Source: Eledone cirrhosa
Lineage: Eukaryota
Assembly (NCBI GenBank): GCA_964016885.1
Contig: CAXHJY010000049.1
Location: forward strand, 25,349 to 89,348
Reading direction: 5' to 3'
DNA length: 64,000 nt
The notes under the pieces were generated by a model. The model was not told the origin of the DNA and searched no databases. It saw nothing but the letters and a program-made list of their open reading frames with translations. Made by a program: the position numbers and the translations under genes. Below, piece after piece: positions 3,879-52,170 of this stretch. The stretch's first letter is position 1; each line of letters opens with the position of its first letter.

Positions 3879-4224
3879 TTTTACTATATATATATATATA
3901 TATAATTGTAAGGTAGTGACTAACCAATTTTTAAAGTTTAAGAATTTTAATTACTGACAATTTCTTACTCTTATAAATATTACACACATATATATATATA
4001 TATGTGTATGTATGTATGTATGTATGTATGTATGTATGTATGTATGTATGTATGTATGTATGTATGTATGTATGTATGTGTCAATAATTGCCACAAGTGT
4101 AGTGTTTGTACCAGAGTTTTCAAGTCGCTGGCTGGACTAAAAAGTCACACTCGTTCAGCGCATCGGTAGGGGTTCTCCTACATGGATATAAAGTAGTGGC
4201 CGTACTCGAAAACGAGTTGACAGC

Positions 4225-9974: not shown

Positions 9975-10048
9975 ATGCGATTTCAAACTCTATTAGTCGG
10001 TCTTTATTTCTACTTGATGTTTCCAGTCAACATAATTGGACTTTGGTG
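9975..10048 (+). CDS. Wnt6: Wnt6 exon 1 (signal peptide MRFQTLLVGLYFYLMFPVNIIGLW-W)
   Basis: ATG at 9975 starts a hydrophobic peptide ending GLW+TG, followed by donor GTGAGT at 10049. The phase-2 junction joins the G at 37683 to give GLWWAVGSPL, the N-terminal motif of Wnt6. Absent from the ORF track. Confidence 0.9.
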
Positions 10049-20710: not shown

Positions 20711-21084
20711 AAATGGAATAGAATGAAACGAAATTTCATTTCTCACTCTTAGTACGGCACTTACTTAAATGCAAGTATGTATGTATGTATACGTACATAC
20801 ATATATGTATACAGACGTACAGTAGTATGTATATATATACATACATGCACACACATATATATATGCACGTATGGGTTTACCGAACATTTATTATAATGCT
20901 CGGTTTGTTTGTTTGTAAACAAATAAACAGCCCGAATTACGCCATACAGCGTTTAGGCAACCTCGTCCCTTTTTTGTTCAACACTGACACAGGAACGATG
21001 TACTAGTTTCAAGCTTATTAGCTATCGTCAGCATCGTATACCTTCCTGCCAGATGGTTGAACGTCTGAAAGTATATACTTTCCT

Positions 21085-26011: not shown

Positions 26012-26468
26012 TATGTGTGTGTGTGTGTGTGTGTTTTGTGTGTGTCTTATGGTAACTAAGATGCGTTCATAGGCGGTATGCCGGTTGAACACTCTATGCT
26101 CCTACGGAGCAGAGTATGATAACAAGGAAAACGAAGAATCAGTGATGTATTCGTAAGGTCCTCAGATACGTCTGTTTGTATCAGAGCAAGTTATCTTTCT
26201 GTTGAAACCAACAGACGTATCTGAGGAACTTGCGAATCCAGAGTCAGGTGCGATCCACAAACAGATCGCACCTCGAGCTGTTTGCCGGAGAAACAATTGT
26301 AATACGTAGTAAATTGAGTTCCGATGCATCACTGATTCTTCGTTTTCCATATATATATATATATATATATATTATAAGAACAGATTACAGTTTAAGCAAA
26401 GGATCGCTGCTTTCACTCTTCTGAAACTTATCGAGCCCTCTTCGGATTTTACTCTTCACATTTATTAT

Positions 26469-27832: not shown

Positions 27833-28213
27833 GAAATGATTAGTAAATTTAGTACATAAATCCTTCAAGATTTTTCATTAAGTAATCGAAATAGAGTCTG
27901 TTTTATTTTCTTTGTTTTTATTATTATTTCTTTTGAGAAATACGATCAGAAATGTGTTAAAATGTCTGACAAGAGTTAATATTAGATATGGAGGTTAGTA
28001 ACAGATGGCATTGCCAAGAATGTGGTACAAACTAATCCAGTATCTACGTCATAACAGCGTTCAGTTATAATAACAAAGATTTCTACCAGTGAAAAAGGTC
28101 AACACTGACGGTGGGTGGGGTTGTGAGTTGTGTATAGCCCCGAGTACTTGGCTCTCGTACTTCTTTCATTGATATTGGAAGGATTAAATATATATTTATA
28201 TTAAGATGTTATG

Positions 28214-28402
28214 AGGGCGGTGGATTGGCAGTATCGGTAGAGGGTCGGACGCCATACTTTGCAACATAGAGTTACGGCCCTTTATGATCTGAGTTCAATC
28301 CCCGCCGAGGTTAACTTTACCTTTCATCCTTACGAGGTCGATAGAATAAAGTACCAGTAATGTACTGGAATAACGACTGGCCTTGTGCCAAAAGTAGAAA
28401 CA
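28214..28402 (+). mobile_element. Full-length SINE copy, followed by further fragments to ~28860
   Basis: GGGCGGTGGATTGGCAGTATCGGTAGAG...GAGTTCAATCCCCGCCGAGG...CCAAAAGTAGAAACA. Confidence 0.88.
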
Positions 28403-29762
28403 ATCATTGTTATACCGTCCTGTACTGTCCTTAATGTATTTTTTGTAAACCCTTTGTGGTTAATAAAGAAAGCATTGTTATTATTATTATTATTATTATT
28501 CCCGTCTATTGTATTTTCCCCCATCTTTCATCCTTACGGGGTCGGTAAAATAAAGTACCTGTCACGCACTGGGGTCGATTTAATCGACTTTCCCCTCCCC
28601 CCAAATTGCTGACCTTGTGCCTATATAAGAAACTATATCAATATGTCCTGGGGCGGAATGTCAGACAGATTTGCTGCATTCGTTTCGGTTCTCTGAGTTA
28701 AACTTTACTTTTCATCCTTTGGAGGTCGATAAAAAAAACGTACTAGCCAAGTGATGGACCGGTAGAACATAGGACAACTGTATGCTTTATTACAGCATAT
28801 AGTTACGTTCCTTTATGTTCTGAGTTCAAATGCCACTGAGGTTAGCTTTGCCTTTCATTTTGTATTCTCAGTAACTTCATGCCACGGATAACGAGATAAA
28901 CATCAGCGCCCTGATGAGAGCTACGGGTTTGAGACAGACTTCAGACAATAAATCATAGGGGTGTTTTATTTAACTCCATTCTCTGATTAATGACACACAG
29001 ACACATACCAGATGACAAGATCTATATCCTTGATAGAAGGACTTTGTTGCGTGAAGACATATTGTATTAAAAGAAAATTAAGAAGACGGTCAAATAATTA
29101 TTAAAAGCGCCATGTCAAAGTTGAAAATACAAATTTCATGACGGCTTGGTGACATGGCCATAAAGAATGTCTCCTTTTGTTGTCAGAGATCAAACACTGT
29201 GTAGCGACTTGATATTCTGTTGTAAAAAGGGGGCCAATAATTAAATCAATTACGGGGTTTATCTCGTTATTATTCTTTATATTTTACCTCCTATATAATA
29301 AGTTGAACATGTACAACATTTAGGGGGCAAATTGTCAGAGTCATTAGGACGTTGGATAGAATGATTTGCGGAATTTGTCCCTCCCCCCTCTCTCTCTCTC
29401 TCTCTCTCCCTCTAGATATCAACATCAATGGACCTGTTATTTTTTATCTAAAGACATTTTTTCCAATTCCACCCCGCCCGTCCCTTCAATCTATCTTATT
29501 TCTCATTCTTTCTTCTGATGAAGGACTAGCGTCCGATATGTTAAGACCCTCTTCCTGCTATATCAAGCGTTAACCTAATATATCCCTTCCATATACTGTA
29601 CCGATTGTGTTGTTATTTCTCTTTATCTTGATATATATATATTTATATATATATATATATATACATATATATACACACACACATGTATAGCCGGTGTCTG
29701 GGAGATACGGAGTTCGATTCCTCGTAACAGCCTAACTCAGAAACCGGTATGTGTATTTCCGA

Positions 29763-29945
29763 AGGCGGTGAATTGCCAGTATCGGTAGAGCGTCGGATAA
29801 GATGCTTTACAGCATAGAGTTACATCTTTTTATGTTCTGAGTTCAAATCCCGTCAAGGTTAGCTTTGGCTTTCATCTTTACGGGGTCGAATAATTCAACT
29901 TTTCCCACCCCACAAAAAAATGATTGGCTTTGTACCTAAATCAGA
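29763..29945 (+). mobile_element. SINE copy
   Basis: GGCGGTGAATTGCCAGTATCGGTAGAG head plus family body. Confidence 0.8.
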
Positions 29946-30176
29946 TTGTCTTATTTGCTCTTCCAAAATCGATCAGTACGTTGTTGCTACTTGTACAAAA
30001 TCATCAATAGTGTATTTCGGTTCAAGCACTCAACGTCATGTATTTTTTATCGAAATATGGTTTGTCAGTGAGATGAGGGAGCGTGTGTAGATTAAGGAAA
30101 ATGCAAAGTTCGGTGTATATAAGCACACAGACACACATAGAGAATACCGCCCTCTATACACCGAACTTCGCATTTT

Positions 30177-30233
<57 letters not shown>

Positions 30234-30322
30234 CACACATATATATATATATTTGTATGTGTATATATATATATATATGCCCCAGCATGGCTTCAGCCGG
30301 ATGGCTGGAACAGGTAAAAGAG

Positions 30323-30354
<32 letters not shown>

Positions 30355-30510
30355 CATGTATGTGTGTATGTGTTTGTGTGTTCGTGTATATATAAACAGG
30401 GTGTCTGTCAAAAATGTATACACAATTTGATTACCTGTACAGTCAATATTTATTAGAATGCACAGCCTGTTTGACATTTTTTTTGGACTATATATATGTA
30501 TTGTATATAT

Positions 30511-30549
<39 letters not shown>

Positions 30550-30772
30550 ATACATGGGGAGGGTCATATTGTTGTAATAATATTGCCAGAATTAATAACA
30601 GAACACACTCACTGTTTGGTTGGTTTTCGCTTCTGTATCTTTTATATCAGTTAATTTATTCGGTCTAAGTGTAACAATATTTGTCTCGACACACGATTTC
30701 ATATCAAAAGCCCCGCAAAACAAATATATATGTATATATTTGTATAAATAATGTATATATTTAATATAGAAG

Positions 30773-30823
30773 AGCTTCTACAGGACTAGAACTGTTTCAT
30801 TCGTGAGAAATCATCAGGAAGCT
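30773..30823 (-). ncRNA. Candidate type I hammerhead ribozyme (antisense copy)
   Basis: Reverse complement reads AGCTTC-CTGATGA-TTTCtcacGAAT-GAAA-CAGttctagtcCTG-TA-GAAGCT. Confidence 0.7.
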
Positions 30824-30907
30824 GGCTGTCTAAGTGGCTGGAGGTAACTTCACATCGTTGGTAGATGCTCCAATGATTAGAAGTTACCTCCACCAACTTG
30901 GACAGCC

Positions 30908-30958
30908 AGCTTCCTGATGATTTCTCACGAATGAAACAGTTCTAAACCTGTAGAAGCT
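30908..30958 (+). ncRNA. Candidate type I hammerhead ribozyme (sense to Wnt6)
   Basis: Stem I AGCTTC/GAAGCT, core CTGATGA (30914-20) and GAAA (30933-36), stem II TTC/GAA closed by U.U, stem III ACAG/CTGT, GUA triplet with predicted cleavage after 30952. Confidence 0.7.
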
Positions 30959-31038
30959 CTTGTATATTAAAACATTTATACTCTGCTATGTGTTGAGTAC
31001 CCTACTTACTGTGGTTACCTCCGATTCAACCCGGAATA

Positions 31039-31075
<37 letters not shown>

Positions 31076-31180
31076 ACTGTGAACTGCGGAATACTCTTAA
31101 TTCCGATCCTAGTATATTACTCTTTTACCTGTTTCAGCCATCCGGCCGAGGCCATGCTGGCGCACCGCCCCATATAATCT

Positions 31181-31214
<34 letters not shown>

Positions 31215-31637
31215 TGTATATATATATAAATACGTGTGTGTGTGTATGAATGTTTATTGTATAGGGAGGTATTCTGTGTGTCTGTGTTTGTGTGTCTATA
31301 TACATAACATATATGGGATCCTTTCACTATCTATATGCGTATATGCGTATATGCGCATATGTATAAATGTATGTTTGTCTGTGTGTGTTTCTGTTGTTTT
31401 TCATATTCTTCGGTTTTCCACTTTCGTTTCTCTCTCTTTCTATAGTACCTTAAGCGAAATAAGCACAGCGCTTCTCCTGCATGTGGCAGACTCTATGTAA
31501 GTATTCTTCCGTTCATTTTCCTTTCTAAGAATTCAGTGTTGGCTATCAAACTTAACTTTGCTCCGCCGAGTTGTGAGAAAAACCACTGCTTAATAAACAC
31601 CACACTCACCCACCATTGTATTTACTAATTAGTTAAT

Positions 31638-31830
31638 TGTTTCTACTTTTGGCATTTATCTCGGTGCATTACTGGTACTTTATTTTATCGACCCCCCCCC
31701 CCCCCCCCCGTAAGGATGAAAGGCAAAGTTAACCTCGGCTCGGCGGGATTTGATCTCAGACCATAAATAGACATAACTATGCTCGAAAGCATGGCGTCCG
31801 ACCCTCTACCGATTCTGCTATCCACCACCC
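31638..31830 (-). mobile_element. Full-length SINE with ~17-bp TSD
   Basis: Flanks TTTACTAATTAGTTAAT (31621) and TTTACTAATTAATTAAT (31831). Confidence 0.88.
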
Positions 31831-31965
31831 TTTACTAATTAATTAATGCTAATATTAATAGGTTAAAAGTTTTTGGTGTTCTTTGATTTGTCTTGTCTTT
31901 GCATAGAAATTAATTAATCATTTAGATAGTGGTTGTCGTCACTATTAAGTCTTTAATGTCAATTA

Positions 31966-32159
31966 GAGACCTGCCAACCTCTAAAAACCCAACGGGAGTA
32001 CCATGAAAAAAAGTGCCCCAAAACGGGGAGATATGAGGTAAAATGGGGAGATTTTTACATAATGAAAGCTGTATCCATTTTCACAAGAGTAGACATCTCT
32101 GACCCACCCCAAAGTGGGTGGGAGATCTCCCTGTTGGATGGGCAGATTTGACAGGTCTG
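31966..32159. mobile_element. MITE with AGACCTGCCAA/TTGACAGGTCT termini
   Basis: Terminal inverted repeats; a second, inverted copy lies at 38558-38932. Confidence 0.75.
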
Positions 32160-32204
32160 CAACTAATTAAAATGTGAAAGTTTCAAATACAGGAAAATAA
32201 CCGT

Positions 32205-32460
32205 AATAGTTGAGAAAACCTGGGCAAATTACCCCTAATGATGGATAAAAGTGGTCAGTAGCGCTTATAAGAAAATGAGACCCGCATTTTTTAGTTTTCA
32301 GGTGCCCCTGTCCACTTTATTTTACCGTCATTAGGGATGATTTTCGGGAAAAAAGGGGACAGTGGTGCCTACAATGAAATAAGGTTCGTATTTTTAAGGA
32401 ACCTCTGAACACTTTTTTTTACCGTCATTAGGGGTAACTTACCCAATTTTCTCAACTATT
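32205..32460. mobile_element. MITE with ~40-bp TIRs
   Basis: AATAGTTGAGAAAA..TGGG.AA.TTACCCCTAATGA.GG mirrored at 32422-32460. Confidence 0.75.
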
Positions 32461-33102
32461 ATCTAAAGCAATCGACTGTTATTACAGGTATTTTTGGCGT
32501 TTGGGACTCTCACAATTTCAAACACTCCCAGCCCTTTCATAATTCATAAGGTTTAATTAATTAAATTTACTTGATCTAGTAGACCTTATTTTTTTACTGT
32601 TTAGTCAAAGAAGGGAGGAAGAGCAGAAAATATAACCATTTTCAAGGCCTGTTGGAGGCGGGGGATGGGCGAGGAAGGTTTCTTCAAACCCGAGACCTAA
32701 TCTGAATACTTGAACTAGAGTGGACTTTACTTAAAACATCCACGTGTCAGGTGCGAGTGTAAAAGAGAGCGCCGGATAGTCTTACCTCCCGACCGACTGA
32801 TGTACACTTTACTAAAACTTTGACATGCATCAGTCGTCACTATTTAATTTTTCCAAGCTCTGAACTCATCCGATTTCTTCTGGAGAGAGAGAGAGAGAGA
32901 GAGAGGGAGAGATGGAGATAGATAGAGGGGGGGGGGTGAATAAAACAAGGCGGGAGTTACCAATATGTATAGTAGTCCGTTGGTCGAGGGCCCACGCATA
33001 TCTGGGGTCCCACTGCTGAAATAAAAGTTGAAATTCGTATTTCCTACATTATAAAAATGATGGTATTATTTAGAATTGGTTGACATTTGGACATTACAAA
33101 CA

Positions 33103-33142
<40 letters not shown>

Positions 33143-33199
33143 AGATTCAGGACCCCGACAGCTGAGCTCCGGCCGTTTCAACAGCTAGATCCGAACTAT

Positions 33200-33263
<64 letters not shown>

Positions 33264-33269
<6 letters not shown>

Positions 33270-33362
33270 GTCCTAAATAATGTGTACACAAAGGTTGTGC
33301 ATTCTAATAAATATTGCCTGGACAGGTAATCAAAATGTGTATACATTTTTTGGGACACCCTG
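33264..33362. mobile_element. ~100-bp Tc1/mariner-type MITE
   Basis: AGGGTGTCC...GGGACACCCTG termini; family copies near 11910, 30397, 43911 and 52727. Confidence 0.75.
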
Positions 33363-33406
33363 AAATTACACTTGCATATTATATATACATATACATACAT
33401 ACACAC

Positions 33407-33437
<31 letters not shown>

Positions 33438-33653
33438 AATTGACAGAGAACTTTTCCTAAAATGGTTGCTGCTCTAATGCTCTTTCCTTTGTTTTTGCTG
33501 TCATTCTCTCTTTGTGTGGTTTCAAGTGTGACTTTATCTCCGCCTGTTGCGAGGCTTCACGTGTTAATTCTTCATTTAATCAATGGTAGCATGCACTGAT
33601 AACTATATAAACGTGTGGTTTGTGTTTTTAACCCTACCTCTTATCATTATGAC

Positions 33654-33824
33654 CAGTGTCAGATTGACCATTGTGCTTAGGTCTACTTAAGCACAGGTCC
33701 CCGTTGGCCGGAGGAAGAGGGGTATCTTCCTGCCATGAAATATTTTTTACGATGACATTTCCAAATGTTTGGGGCCTCATAACTTAACTAGCCTAGGGCC
33801 TCATTTGTGCTAAATCCGGCACTA
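33654..33824. mobile_element. hAT-like MITE (CAGTGCCGGATT-type TIR)
   Basis: CAGTGTCAGATT / AATCCGGCACTA termini; 8-bp TSD ATTATGAC/ACTATGAC; related copy at 35176-35336. Confidence 0.7.
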
Positions 33825-34234
33825 ACTATGACCCGCATTTCTAGGATTAACATGCAAATCTGAATATTGCTTTGGACGGAATTGCAAGATGGTCGAATAT
33901 AGGCATCGTTTTCTTTTATTTTTGGGCGGGGGGGGGGGGGGGGGGGGGATTTATTTTGCAATATTCTTGATGTGAAATCGTGTGCTGAAATAAGTATTGC
34001 CGTCAAAGAATGTACGTAAGCCGAATTTTCTTATAAATAAAAGATGCTATGCAGAAAATTCAGTTTATAATAGAGATTTCTAGAGTTATATTAATACAAA
34101 ATAAAAGGTTTGTCTAAACATATTGTCATAAGTTAATAAAGGACACACATACGCAAGCACATCATATACACACACAAACACAAACTATTTAATTTTTCTA
34201 AGCTCTGAACTGATGAACTCATCCGATTTCTTCC

Positions 34235-36790: not shown

Positions 36791-37259
36791 GAAATGATTA
36801 TAATGATTTCTTTTGAATGAAACACTCCTTGTCCTGTAGAAGCCATTTCTATATTAAACCTGATGTTTACACTCTACTAATGTATTGAGTAGTTTACTAA
36901 GTGTGGTTACTCCCGTCGATTGAAACCGGGACTCACACACACATGTATATCTGGTCATCTAATTCCTCATGCCAACAGGCCACTATTCTCCTCCATCTTT
37001 CTGTGTCTCTGGGAAGGGTTGGTGCTTCAAACCAGTTTGTGGTACACCTGCACTGATCATCTTTTAAGGTGGATCTCTAGATCTTTTTTGGCCTCATCTC
37101 TGGTCTTTTCCCGCCAACAATGACATTATTTCAAGTAATGTTTCGAAAATAAGTTTCACTAAAGCTGGCTCTCAACGAAGCTTAAGATAACAGAGATATA
37201 TTCACAGTCAAGGGCTAACTATCATTTATGAATGTAAGATATTGGTGCGTGTGCAAATT

Positions 37260-37682: not shown

Positions 37683-37903
37683 GGCAGTTGGTAGTCCTCT
37701 TGATATGGATCCAAACGCAATATGCCGCAAAAGCCGGCGACTTGAAGGAAAACAACGAAGAATTTGCAGAAAAGAGCAAGAAATTGTCCGTGAGATAGCA
37801 AAAGGTGCTAAGTTAGCACTGTCTGAATGCCAATATCAATTTGCAGCACGCCAATGGAATTGTACCACAGCGAGACGGTCTTTTGGAAAAATATTACGTC
37901 GTG
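37683..37903 (+). CDS. Wnt6: Wnt6 exon 2
   Basis: AG acceptor at 37681-82. Encodes (W)AVGSPLDMDPNAICRKSRRLEGKQ...ECQYQFAARQWNCTT...ILRR; AVGSPLxMDPxxICRK is Wnt6-diagnostic. Donor GTAAGA at 37904, phase 1. Confidence 0.96.
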
Positions 37904-38251: not shown

Positions 38252-38557
38252 CCCGGTTCAATCGGGGGTAACCACAGTTAGTAAGGTACCCAATATATTA
38301 GTAGAGTGTAAACATCAAGTTTAATATAAAAATGGCTTTTACAAGACTAGAACTGTTTCATTCAAAAGAGAAGCAGAATGAACCACAATACAGGACTGGT
38401 ACGTTTTGTATCGCCCTCGAAAGGATGGGAAGCAAAGTTGACCTGGAAAGGATTTAAACTTAGAGTTTCGTGGAGTCAGAATTAAAACCACACAGCTTAT
38501 TATTCGTTGTTCTAACAACTCCGCCAATTTGACGCCTACTCCACTTGTGCCATGTAG

Positions 38558-41140: not shown

Positions 41141-41145
<5 letters not shown>

Positions 41146-41320
41146 AAGGAATTGTGGTAAGGAACCAGATGGACCATAACGCACCAGAGTACTCAATACT
41201 TAGGGTAATAGAGTGGGAAATAGGAAAAAGTATGACCCCGACGGCAGAGGTCAAGCTGTTTCGATGGCTATATAGCCGTCGAAACGGCTTGAGCTCTGCC
41301 GTCGGGGTCATACTTTTTCC

Positions 41321-41323
<3 letters not shown>
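41141..41323 (-). mobile_element. (TA)n-embedded fold-back element carrying the 3' half of a hammerhead motif
   Basis: 52-bp inverted arms at 41220-41323; family copies near 10799, 15709, 33140, 57428, 57664 and 59690. Confidence 0.65.
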
Positions 41324-51102: not shown

Positions 51103-51377
51103 ATTTACGAGAAACTGCTTTCGTTTACGCCATAACTGCGGCAGGAGTGACATATTCTGTGACTCAGGCCTGCAGTGAAGGAGCACTTCTTCAATGTACA
51201 TGTGACAGAAATAACATTCGTGACAAATCAACAGACGGTAAATGGGCGTGGGGTGGATGTGGAGACGATGTCAACTTTGGTTATCTCAAGTCCAAGGAAT
51301 TTATGGATGCAAGAAAAAAGAAACGGTGTGATATAACCACGAAAATTCGAATGCACAATAACGAGGCCGGAAGATTG
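51103..51377 (+). CDS. Wnt6: Wnt6 exon 3
   Basis: Polypyrimidine tract plus CCAG acceptor. Encodes (D)LRETAFVYAITAAGV...ACSEG...CTCD...WAWGGCGDD...HNNEAGRL (Wnt core motifs). Donor GTAAGT at 51378, phase 0. Confidence 0.97.
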
Positions 51378-51486: not shown

Positions 51487-51648
51487 ACCCCAGTGTGTTA
51501 CTGGTACTGTATTTCATCGACCCAGTAAGGATGAAAGTCAAGGCCTGCCGAGGTTTGCTTTGCCTTAAAATCCTTACGAAGCTGATAAAATAAAGTACCA
51601 GTAATGCACTGGGATAATTGCTGGCCTTGTGCCAAAAGTAGAAACAAT
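51487..51648. mobile_element. Palindromic SINE chimera in Wnt6 intron 3
   Basis: Minus-strand body joined to plus-strand body via AAGGCCTG.CG.GGTT..GCCTTAAAATCCTTACGA. Confidence 0.75.
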
Positions 51649-51708: not shown

Positions 51709-52170
51709 GCTGTGAAGAACCACATGAGGAGGGTCTGCAAATGCCATGGATTGTCTGGGTCTTGTACCTTACAAACATGTTGGCAAAAGATGCCATTATT
51801 TCGACATGTTGGAAATAGATTAAAAGAAAAGTTTAAAGGAGCCTCGAAGGTGATAATATCAAACGATGGACAACACGTAATTCCAGAGGGAGATACTATT
51901 AAGAAACCAAGTGCTACAGATTTAATTTATTCTGAGAATTCACCTGATTTTTGTAGACCAAGTCGAAAGGCAGGTTCTTTGGGGACAAAAGGACGGACAT
52001 GTGACTTGTATTCAAAAGACGTTGGTGGGTGTGATCTTCTATGTTGTAACCGGGGTTACAAACGAGGTTACCATGTAGTAACAGAAAACTGTAAATGTAG
52101 ATTTATTTGGTGTTGCGATGTTGTGTGCCAAAGATGTGTTAATAACAAGACTATGTACACGTGCTTATGA
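51709..52170 (+). CDS. Wnt6: Wnt6 exon 4 (terminal coding exon)
   Basis: TTTTAG acceptor. Encodes AVKNHMRRVCKCHGLSGSCTLQTCW (Wnt signature with the lipidated Ser), SPDFC, CDLLCCNRGY, CKCRFIWCCDVVCQRC; TGA ends at 52170. Confidence 0.97.
   Translation, partial: AVKNHMRRVCKCHGLSGSCTLQTCWQKMPLFRHVGNRLKEKFKGASKVIISNDGQHVIPEGDTIKKPSATDLIYSENSPDFCRPSRKAGSLGTKGRTCDLYSKDVGGCDLLCCNRGYKRGYHVVTENCKCRFIWCCDVVCQRCVNNKTMYTCL

Follow-up and report, generated by a model that had tools for sequence, protein, structure and literature searches.

Inverted, 5'-truncated pLTR copies with a tail on one side only have been published for endonuclease-bearing Penelope-like elements (PLEs; PMC8557442, PMC3846280), and hammerhead motifs paired on opposite strands 100-700 bp apart are reported for PLEs in PMC4209133, while the role of the hammerhead in these elements is called unclear in PMC8557442. 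The feature analyzed in this study, located in a 64,000-nt stretch of Eledone cirrhosa DNA (hereafter, the window) within intron 1 of Wnt6, shares with the endonuclease-bearing PLEs of PMC8557442 and PMC3846280 a head-to-head, 5'-truncated inverted copy, a tail at one end, a pLTR hammerhead and a (TA)n target, and its family has the Cys-rich linker between reverse transcriptase (RT) and endonuclease that these sources describe for Neptune and Nematis. It differs from the elements described there in the length of the tail (~70 nt vs. 30-40 nt), in that most copies of the family are tiny stubs with a junction at ribozyme stem I, and in the piece of 5' reading frame found at the centre of the Wnt6 copy. 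The type I hammerheads of PMC4209133 likewise share the pLTR topology, the thousands of dispersed copies and the close opposite-strand pairs, but the motif studied here is not minimal: its helix III consists of 3 bp and a loop of 8 nt, and its 3-bp stem II opens with U.U instead of G10.1-C11.1. The Poseidon element PAc of Anolis (PMC11167929), a member of another clade, has in common with our family an AT-rich target and a ribozyme near the start of the frame, and its two internal reverse-transcription start sites fit the two 3' ends described below; its ribozyme is reported to have cleaved only with the element's protein. Two further systems resemble the Wnt6 feature in part. Amniote intronic hammerheads such as that of RECK (PMC6155905) share the type I motif and the sense orientation relative to the host intron, but they are described as conserved across taxa, whereas the Wnt6 motif belongs to a young high-copy family and lies in a duplex. 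Palindromic ADAR substrates of the Xenopus Harbinger and lizard Penelope type (PMC5625713) share a self-folding repeat of ~200 nt that needs no partner copy; those repeats are described as ADAR substrates, whereas the Wnt6 hairpin is a predicted one.

Overall, the evidence assembled below makes it very likely that the Wnt6 feature is a truncated insertion of a high-copy PLE, likely of the Neptune clade, whose head-to-head hairpin is predicted to block the hammerhead, and which is likely a neutral, self-silenced relic. A regulatory role for this copy is unsupported. Coordinates are collected in Table 1.

Table 1. Wnt6 exons and parts of the intron 1 insertion, with positions counted from the first letter of the window.
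Feature	Position	Strand	Basis or remark
Wnt6 exon 1, predicted signal-peptide exon, phase-2 donor	9975..10048	+	ATG/splice-site prediction
Whole insertion	30760..31040	+	Inverted 5'-truncated pLTR copy, then sense pLTR end with tail
Antisense arm	30760..30861	-	Ends at short family 3' end, without tail
Type I hammerhead motif, antisense in Wnt6 pre-mRNA	30773..30823	-	C3 at 30817
Palindrome centre	30846..30885	.	24 nt derived from the 5' frame of the element, shared by both arms
Sense arm of palindrome	30870..30971	+	Complementarity to antisense arm
Type I hammerhead motif, sense to Wnt6	30908..30958	+	C3 at 30914, U.U at 10.1/11.1
One-sided element tail	30972..31040	+	Followed by (TA)n
Wnt6 exon 2, approximate 3' end	37683..37902	+	Pfam wnt match, protein similarity
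Further Wnt exon	about 51103-51377	+	Pfam wnt match
Further Wnt exon	about 51709-52167	+	Pfam wnt match

The imperfect palindrome of ~210 nt from which the original prediction started is real, and measures 212 nt (30760-30971). Its two 102-nt arms (30760-30861 and 30870-30971) are 91% complementary, with 9 mismatches, and are separated by a gap of 8 nt that forms the unpaired loop (30862-30869), the left arm running 8 nt further than the right. Folding of 30750-30980 yielded -164.5 kcal/mol (z = -24.2), and none of 200 shuffled sequences was equally stable. The limits first proposed (30761..30970) hold for the palindrome and fall short of the element, which reaches 31040. At the centre, the 24-nt piece present in both arms matches the element's frame 321 nt downstream of the ribozyme in the full-length copy L082, and by this match the palindrome centre is frame-derived and not pLTR sequence. 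No target-site duplication is discernible at the insertion; both flanks are TA-rich.

Each arm carries a complete type I hammerhead motif, as had been claimed: the core (CUGANGA, GAAA and UH) and stems I-III are complete in both. For the sense motif, stem I (30908-30913/30953-30958) has 6/6 pairs and stems II and III have 3/3 each, with a GUA site and a predicted cut after 30952; the antisense motif has the same 6/3/3 pairs. The U.U at 10.1/11.1 noted in the original prediction is shared by the two arms and by most variants of the family, where it replaces the standard pair. According to PMC3088659, the U10.1-U11.1 mismatch occurs in natural hammerheads and is the best-tolerated mispair. With a strict type I descriptor, the window yielded 3 matches, one on the plus strand and two on the minus strand, whereas 200 two-base-block shuffles yielded none. 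A search with the Rfam hammerhead models, which had been suggested as a check, gave 0 matches over the window at the gathering threshold, and none of the 19 Rfam matches at E <= 10 over 30600-31100 is a hammerhead. Taken by itself, the motif is no more stably folded than its shuffles (z = -0.28). We refer to the feature in the Wnt6 intron as a hammerhead motif, or predicted ribozyme. The third descriptor match, on the minus strand, is probably the motif at 21031, a hammerhead-like core of a different repeat family (~20990-21031, minus strand) that is antisense in Wnt6 intron 1; an intact-core motif resembling it occurs at position 2790, minus strand, of another sampled locus (L032).

The long near-perfect hairpin between TA-rich flanks, together with weak scores of Rfam microRNA-precursor models, might recall a single mobile or functional unit, either a palindromic MITE or a microRNA-like hairpin. 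We consider this extremely improbable. The best of those scores is 66 bits vs. a gathering threshold of 200 bits, and reflects the long hairpin only. Pattern searches located the central junction of the Wnt6 hairpin at a single site in the genome, and junctions vary between copies; the two ends differ, with a tail on one side only, and the arms have their counterpart in the pLTR of an autonomous retroelement. A non-LTR retrozyme was rejected as well: the motif is not directly repeated within 28000-34000, and the arrangement is head to head.

The retroelement behind the arms was reached through copy L030, beside which an inverted endonuclease-like frame pointed to an extensive protein family (54,726 candidates, of which 150 were scored). 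Among ten loci fetched from this family, three (L080-L082) are full-length copies whose pLTRs match the Wnt6 copy at 88-90% over 143 nt (BLAST), with a near-identical ribozyme ~40 nt upstream of unbroken frames of 758-759 codons. This similarity to a region upstream of RT/GIY-YIG-like frames bears out the Penelope-like pLTR origin that had been proposed. The encoded protein has RT motifs, a Cys-rich linker before the endonuclease and a GIY-YIG-like C-terminus. SDK and YRDD are among its RT motifs. Pfam detected GIY-YIG in one of two full-length proteins with E = 0.026, which is below the cut-off, and a Pfam search of the full-length protein gave no RT family match, nor did a PDB search give a meaningful one. 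DKG is given as a diagnostic motif in PMC8557442, and the Cys-rich linker marks Neptune and Nematis in PMC8557442 and PMC3846280, which ascribe a microsatellite bias to Neptune. In our family, (TA)n follows the tail in most sampled copies, and on the basis of the linker and these flanks the element is likely Neptune-type.

The three full-length copies (on G000:C2, C3 and C4) have many near-identical endonuclease matches in addition to their unbroken frames, which suggests a young, possibly active subfamily. Relative to the Wnt6 copy, their ribozyme has a compensatory swap in stem I, and its loop II is not the same. Two other loci (L041 and L059) have in common another type of sequence downstream of the core, one that lacks the stem I partner; these may represent a sister subfamily or a recurrent chimera.

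Copies of this family are very numerous. An initial look at the genome with the arm repeat gave 1,050 candidates (40 scored), and exact searches found 1,783 copies of the 24-nt core and 9,510 copies of a 23-nt tail word. At 3,938 sites, an antisense core half is separated by 2-13 nt from a sense one. The control count was 0 in each of these three cases. The first 100 core matches listed include 12 head-to-head pairs (24 matches) whose members are no more than 200 nt from each other. A tail-anchored sample (L090-L159), comprising 70 of the first 74 tail matches listed after omission of 4 already-sampled loci, contains an inverted piece upstream in 39/70 and an inverted arm over the ribozyme in 37/70; both core motifs are present in 15/70 and both complete motifs in 9/70. 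Inverted pairing is the family's usual insertion form. The Wnt6 copy conforms to the inverted pLTR arrangement named in the original prediction, being inverted and 5'-truncated, head to head, with the tail on one end. With 96 nt between its cores, it belongs to the minority of copies that have a long spacer. The family has two 3' ends, one short and one tailed; the left Wnt6 arm ends at the short one and the right arm at the tailed one.

These features can be accommodated in a scheme in which the endonuclease would cut a TA-rich site and reverse transcription would begin at the two family 3' ends, the short one giving the left arm and the tailed one the right; a template jump to the 5' reading frame of the element would then be followed by head-to-head joining of the copies. 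The two start sites of this scheme fit the both-strand extension and two start sites described for the Anolis element (PMC11167929). An alternative route for the joining would be self-priming, as proposed in PMC3846280.

The positions at which copies are truncated and joined are not scattered. In the tail-anchored sample, the 5' end of the sense copy lies within -10..+5 of C3 in 25/70 loci, compared with 8 in the wider interval -50..-11, and 28 of the 37 inverted arms end within -12..+3; these positions are BLAST ends relative to two natural reference copies, with an accuracy of a few bases. Four contig sets (X1, X3, X5 and X6, from at most three samples) contain at least 15 inverted joints near the 5' edge of the ribozyme, all belonging to other copies; no piece in these sets spans the Wnt6 locus or covers the centre at 30861-30877. 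Among the 15 joints listed, 13 connect 30802-30822 to 30908-30915, and there are 168 more joints beyond those listed. The 5' strand of stem I is thus a hotspot of inversion and truncation junctions, and the 3,938 back-to-back sites agree with this; the Wnt6 copy itself lies outside the hotspot. In a few copies, e.g., L099, the antisense arm passes over into the sense strand via the complementarity of stem I itself.

We raise as a tentative idea, to which we give a rather low probability, that the hammerhead sets the inversion point, and that the element in this way mass-produces self-silenced ribozyme hairpins, which would allow it to persist in genes like Wnt6 and provide the cephalopod transcriptome with thousands of short-loop ADAR substrates. 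With a stem I hotspot in a family that has intact young copies, it would become possible to test how ribozyme structure and inverted integration are linked. Both inverted pLTRs and hammerhead pairs on opposite strands have been published already, whereas our literature searches, restricted to papers outside subscription, found none on junction clustering at stem I or on the cephalopod family. A genomic trace of ribozyme action in the form of cleaved templates was also considered and dropped: only 3/70 sense copies have their 5' end close to the cut site (+35..+39), and this amounts to no evidence.

In the family, the hammerhead fold appears to be retained. In a set of 33 distinct variants that keep their native upstream context, 93.9% of cells are paired and loop II is variable; in stem I, C-G is swapped to A-U and A-U to G-C, and changes on both sides amount to 13 cells vs. 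5.5 in shuffles, with 0/500 shuffles reaching 13. The variants were selected on their core, and the covariation consists of two column pairs separating a few subfamilies, which leaves it as moderate evidence that the fold is kept in the active element. The motif would then be maintained there and not at the Wnt6 locus. Private changes at the latter, scored against 46 same-subfamily stretches, number 5 in 144 nt of the sense arm and 1 in 74 nt of the antisense arm. None of them falls in the core or stems of either arm, an outcome that, by our estimate, chance alone would give about 1 time in 5 for the sense arm. Against the neutral reading stand the intact core and three stems that both arms retain, together with the long spacer and unique junction of this copy. 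Two of the sense changes (30945-30946) abolish the CTAG palindrome of loop III, a hallmark of PLE dimer hammerheads, which the antisense arm keeps.

The gene hosting the hairpin is Wnt6, on the plus strand. Exon 2 has 86% identity to wnt 6 of Doryteuthis pealeii, the other named matches being Wnt-6-like and the rest unnamed, and the predicted donor of exon 1 upstream is in phase 2, matching exon 2. With both exons on the plus strand, the hairpin lies in a 27.6-kb intron 1 and the antisense arm, being upstream, is transcribed first, as originally stated. A second Wnt6 copy or haplotig was rejected: exon 2 has one 100% match in the genome, and the 6 others are paralogues at 30-43%. The sole Wnt6 copy lies on an 89-kb contig (G000:C76), not on a large scaffold.

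Folding of the transcript supports the proposal that the sense ribozyme would be sequestered by the antisense arm, with which it is predicted to pair as soon as it is transcribed: in the Wnt6 transcript the hammerhead fold lies 77.6 kcal/mol above the duplex ensemble. Outside the duplex, the penalty is 2.2 kcal/mol for the motif alone and 4.8 kcal/mol for the sense arm with its tail, where the pair probability of stem II is 0.03-0.07. When two copies of the motif were folded together, no clean dimeric hammerhead emerged, an outcome that is not informative.

A more ambitious part of the original prediction held that this is a domesticated, gated ribozyme, in which opening of the hairpin, through ADAR editing or a helicase, allows a cut after 30952 that tunes Wnt6. 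Such a switch under the control of editing would be striking if true, and several observations speak for it: the motif is complete and in sense orientation within a developmental gene, the U.U mispair is a natural and well-tolerated one (PMC3088659), conserved intronic hammerheads are described in amniotes (PMC6155905), and Octopus is described as very highly hyper-edited and rich in double-stranded RNA, with lizard Penelope also heavily edited (PMC5625713). Nevertheless, we regard this reading as very improbable. The Wnt6 site is one of thousands of equivalent sites (the 3,938 counted above), its arrangement is the family default, and its private decay is ordinary. Gating by editing finds no footing in the energies: with edited A treated as G the duplex remains at -154.5 kcal/mol, with all 29 left-arm adenosines barred from pairing at -76.7 kcal/mol, and only when all 62 adenosines are barred, including those of the catalytic core, does the hairpin fall to -13.5 kcal/mol. 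Opening thus needs sense-arm adenosines, catalytic ones among them, so that editing would be expected to spoil the ribozyme while freeing it. Even a freed sense arm with tail would rarely fold, given the 4.8 kcal/mol penalty, and it is devoid of the loop-III palindrome. Moreover, the published single PLE motifs are inactive or protein-dependent as far as the available accounts go, with no cleavage reported for a single motif in PMC4209133 and cleavage only with the element's protein for the Anolis ribozyme (PMC11167929). Passive editing of the Wnt6 hairpin is plausible: the hairpin would act as a passive ADAR substrate in the pre-mRNA and leave with the spliced intron.

The introns of Wnt6 contain two older, core-broken copies of the same family, at 36803-36929 (plus strand) in intron 1 and at 38252-38363 (minus strand) in intron 2, with 73% and 78% identity to the sense arm and tail. 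The sole intact sense copy in these introns is the paired one, as would be expected if the inverted arm let the intron tolerate a sense ribozyme and if unpaired intact sense copies were purged from genes; a preprint (10.64898/2026.07.22.740005) describes the exclusion of hammerhead retrozymes from Xenopus introns. We hold such selected silencing to be unlikely: a single gene makes no statistic, inversion is common genome-wide whatever the context, so that selection is unneeded, and the free motif may be inactive anyway. Returning to the reading of a neutral relic, the hairpin is probably unimportant for Wnt6, being one of thousands of stubs and lying in a pre-mRNA with many inverted repeats (47 inverted alignments of >=50 nt within the gene).

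Other short palindromes in the Wnt6 introns lie at 41141-41323, 26146-26240 and 51489-51613. The stretch 41220-41323, which is 94% self-complementary with a one-sided extension and (TA)n flanks, looks like a second Penelope-type stub. On the left flank of the intron 1 insertion, 30555-30720 is, judging by depth in the contig sets, a very high-copy repeat between (TA)n runs, with 96-99% matches over 115 nt in two of the sampled loci (L101 and L105), and is probably another TA-targeting insertion.
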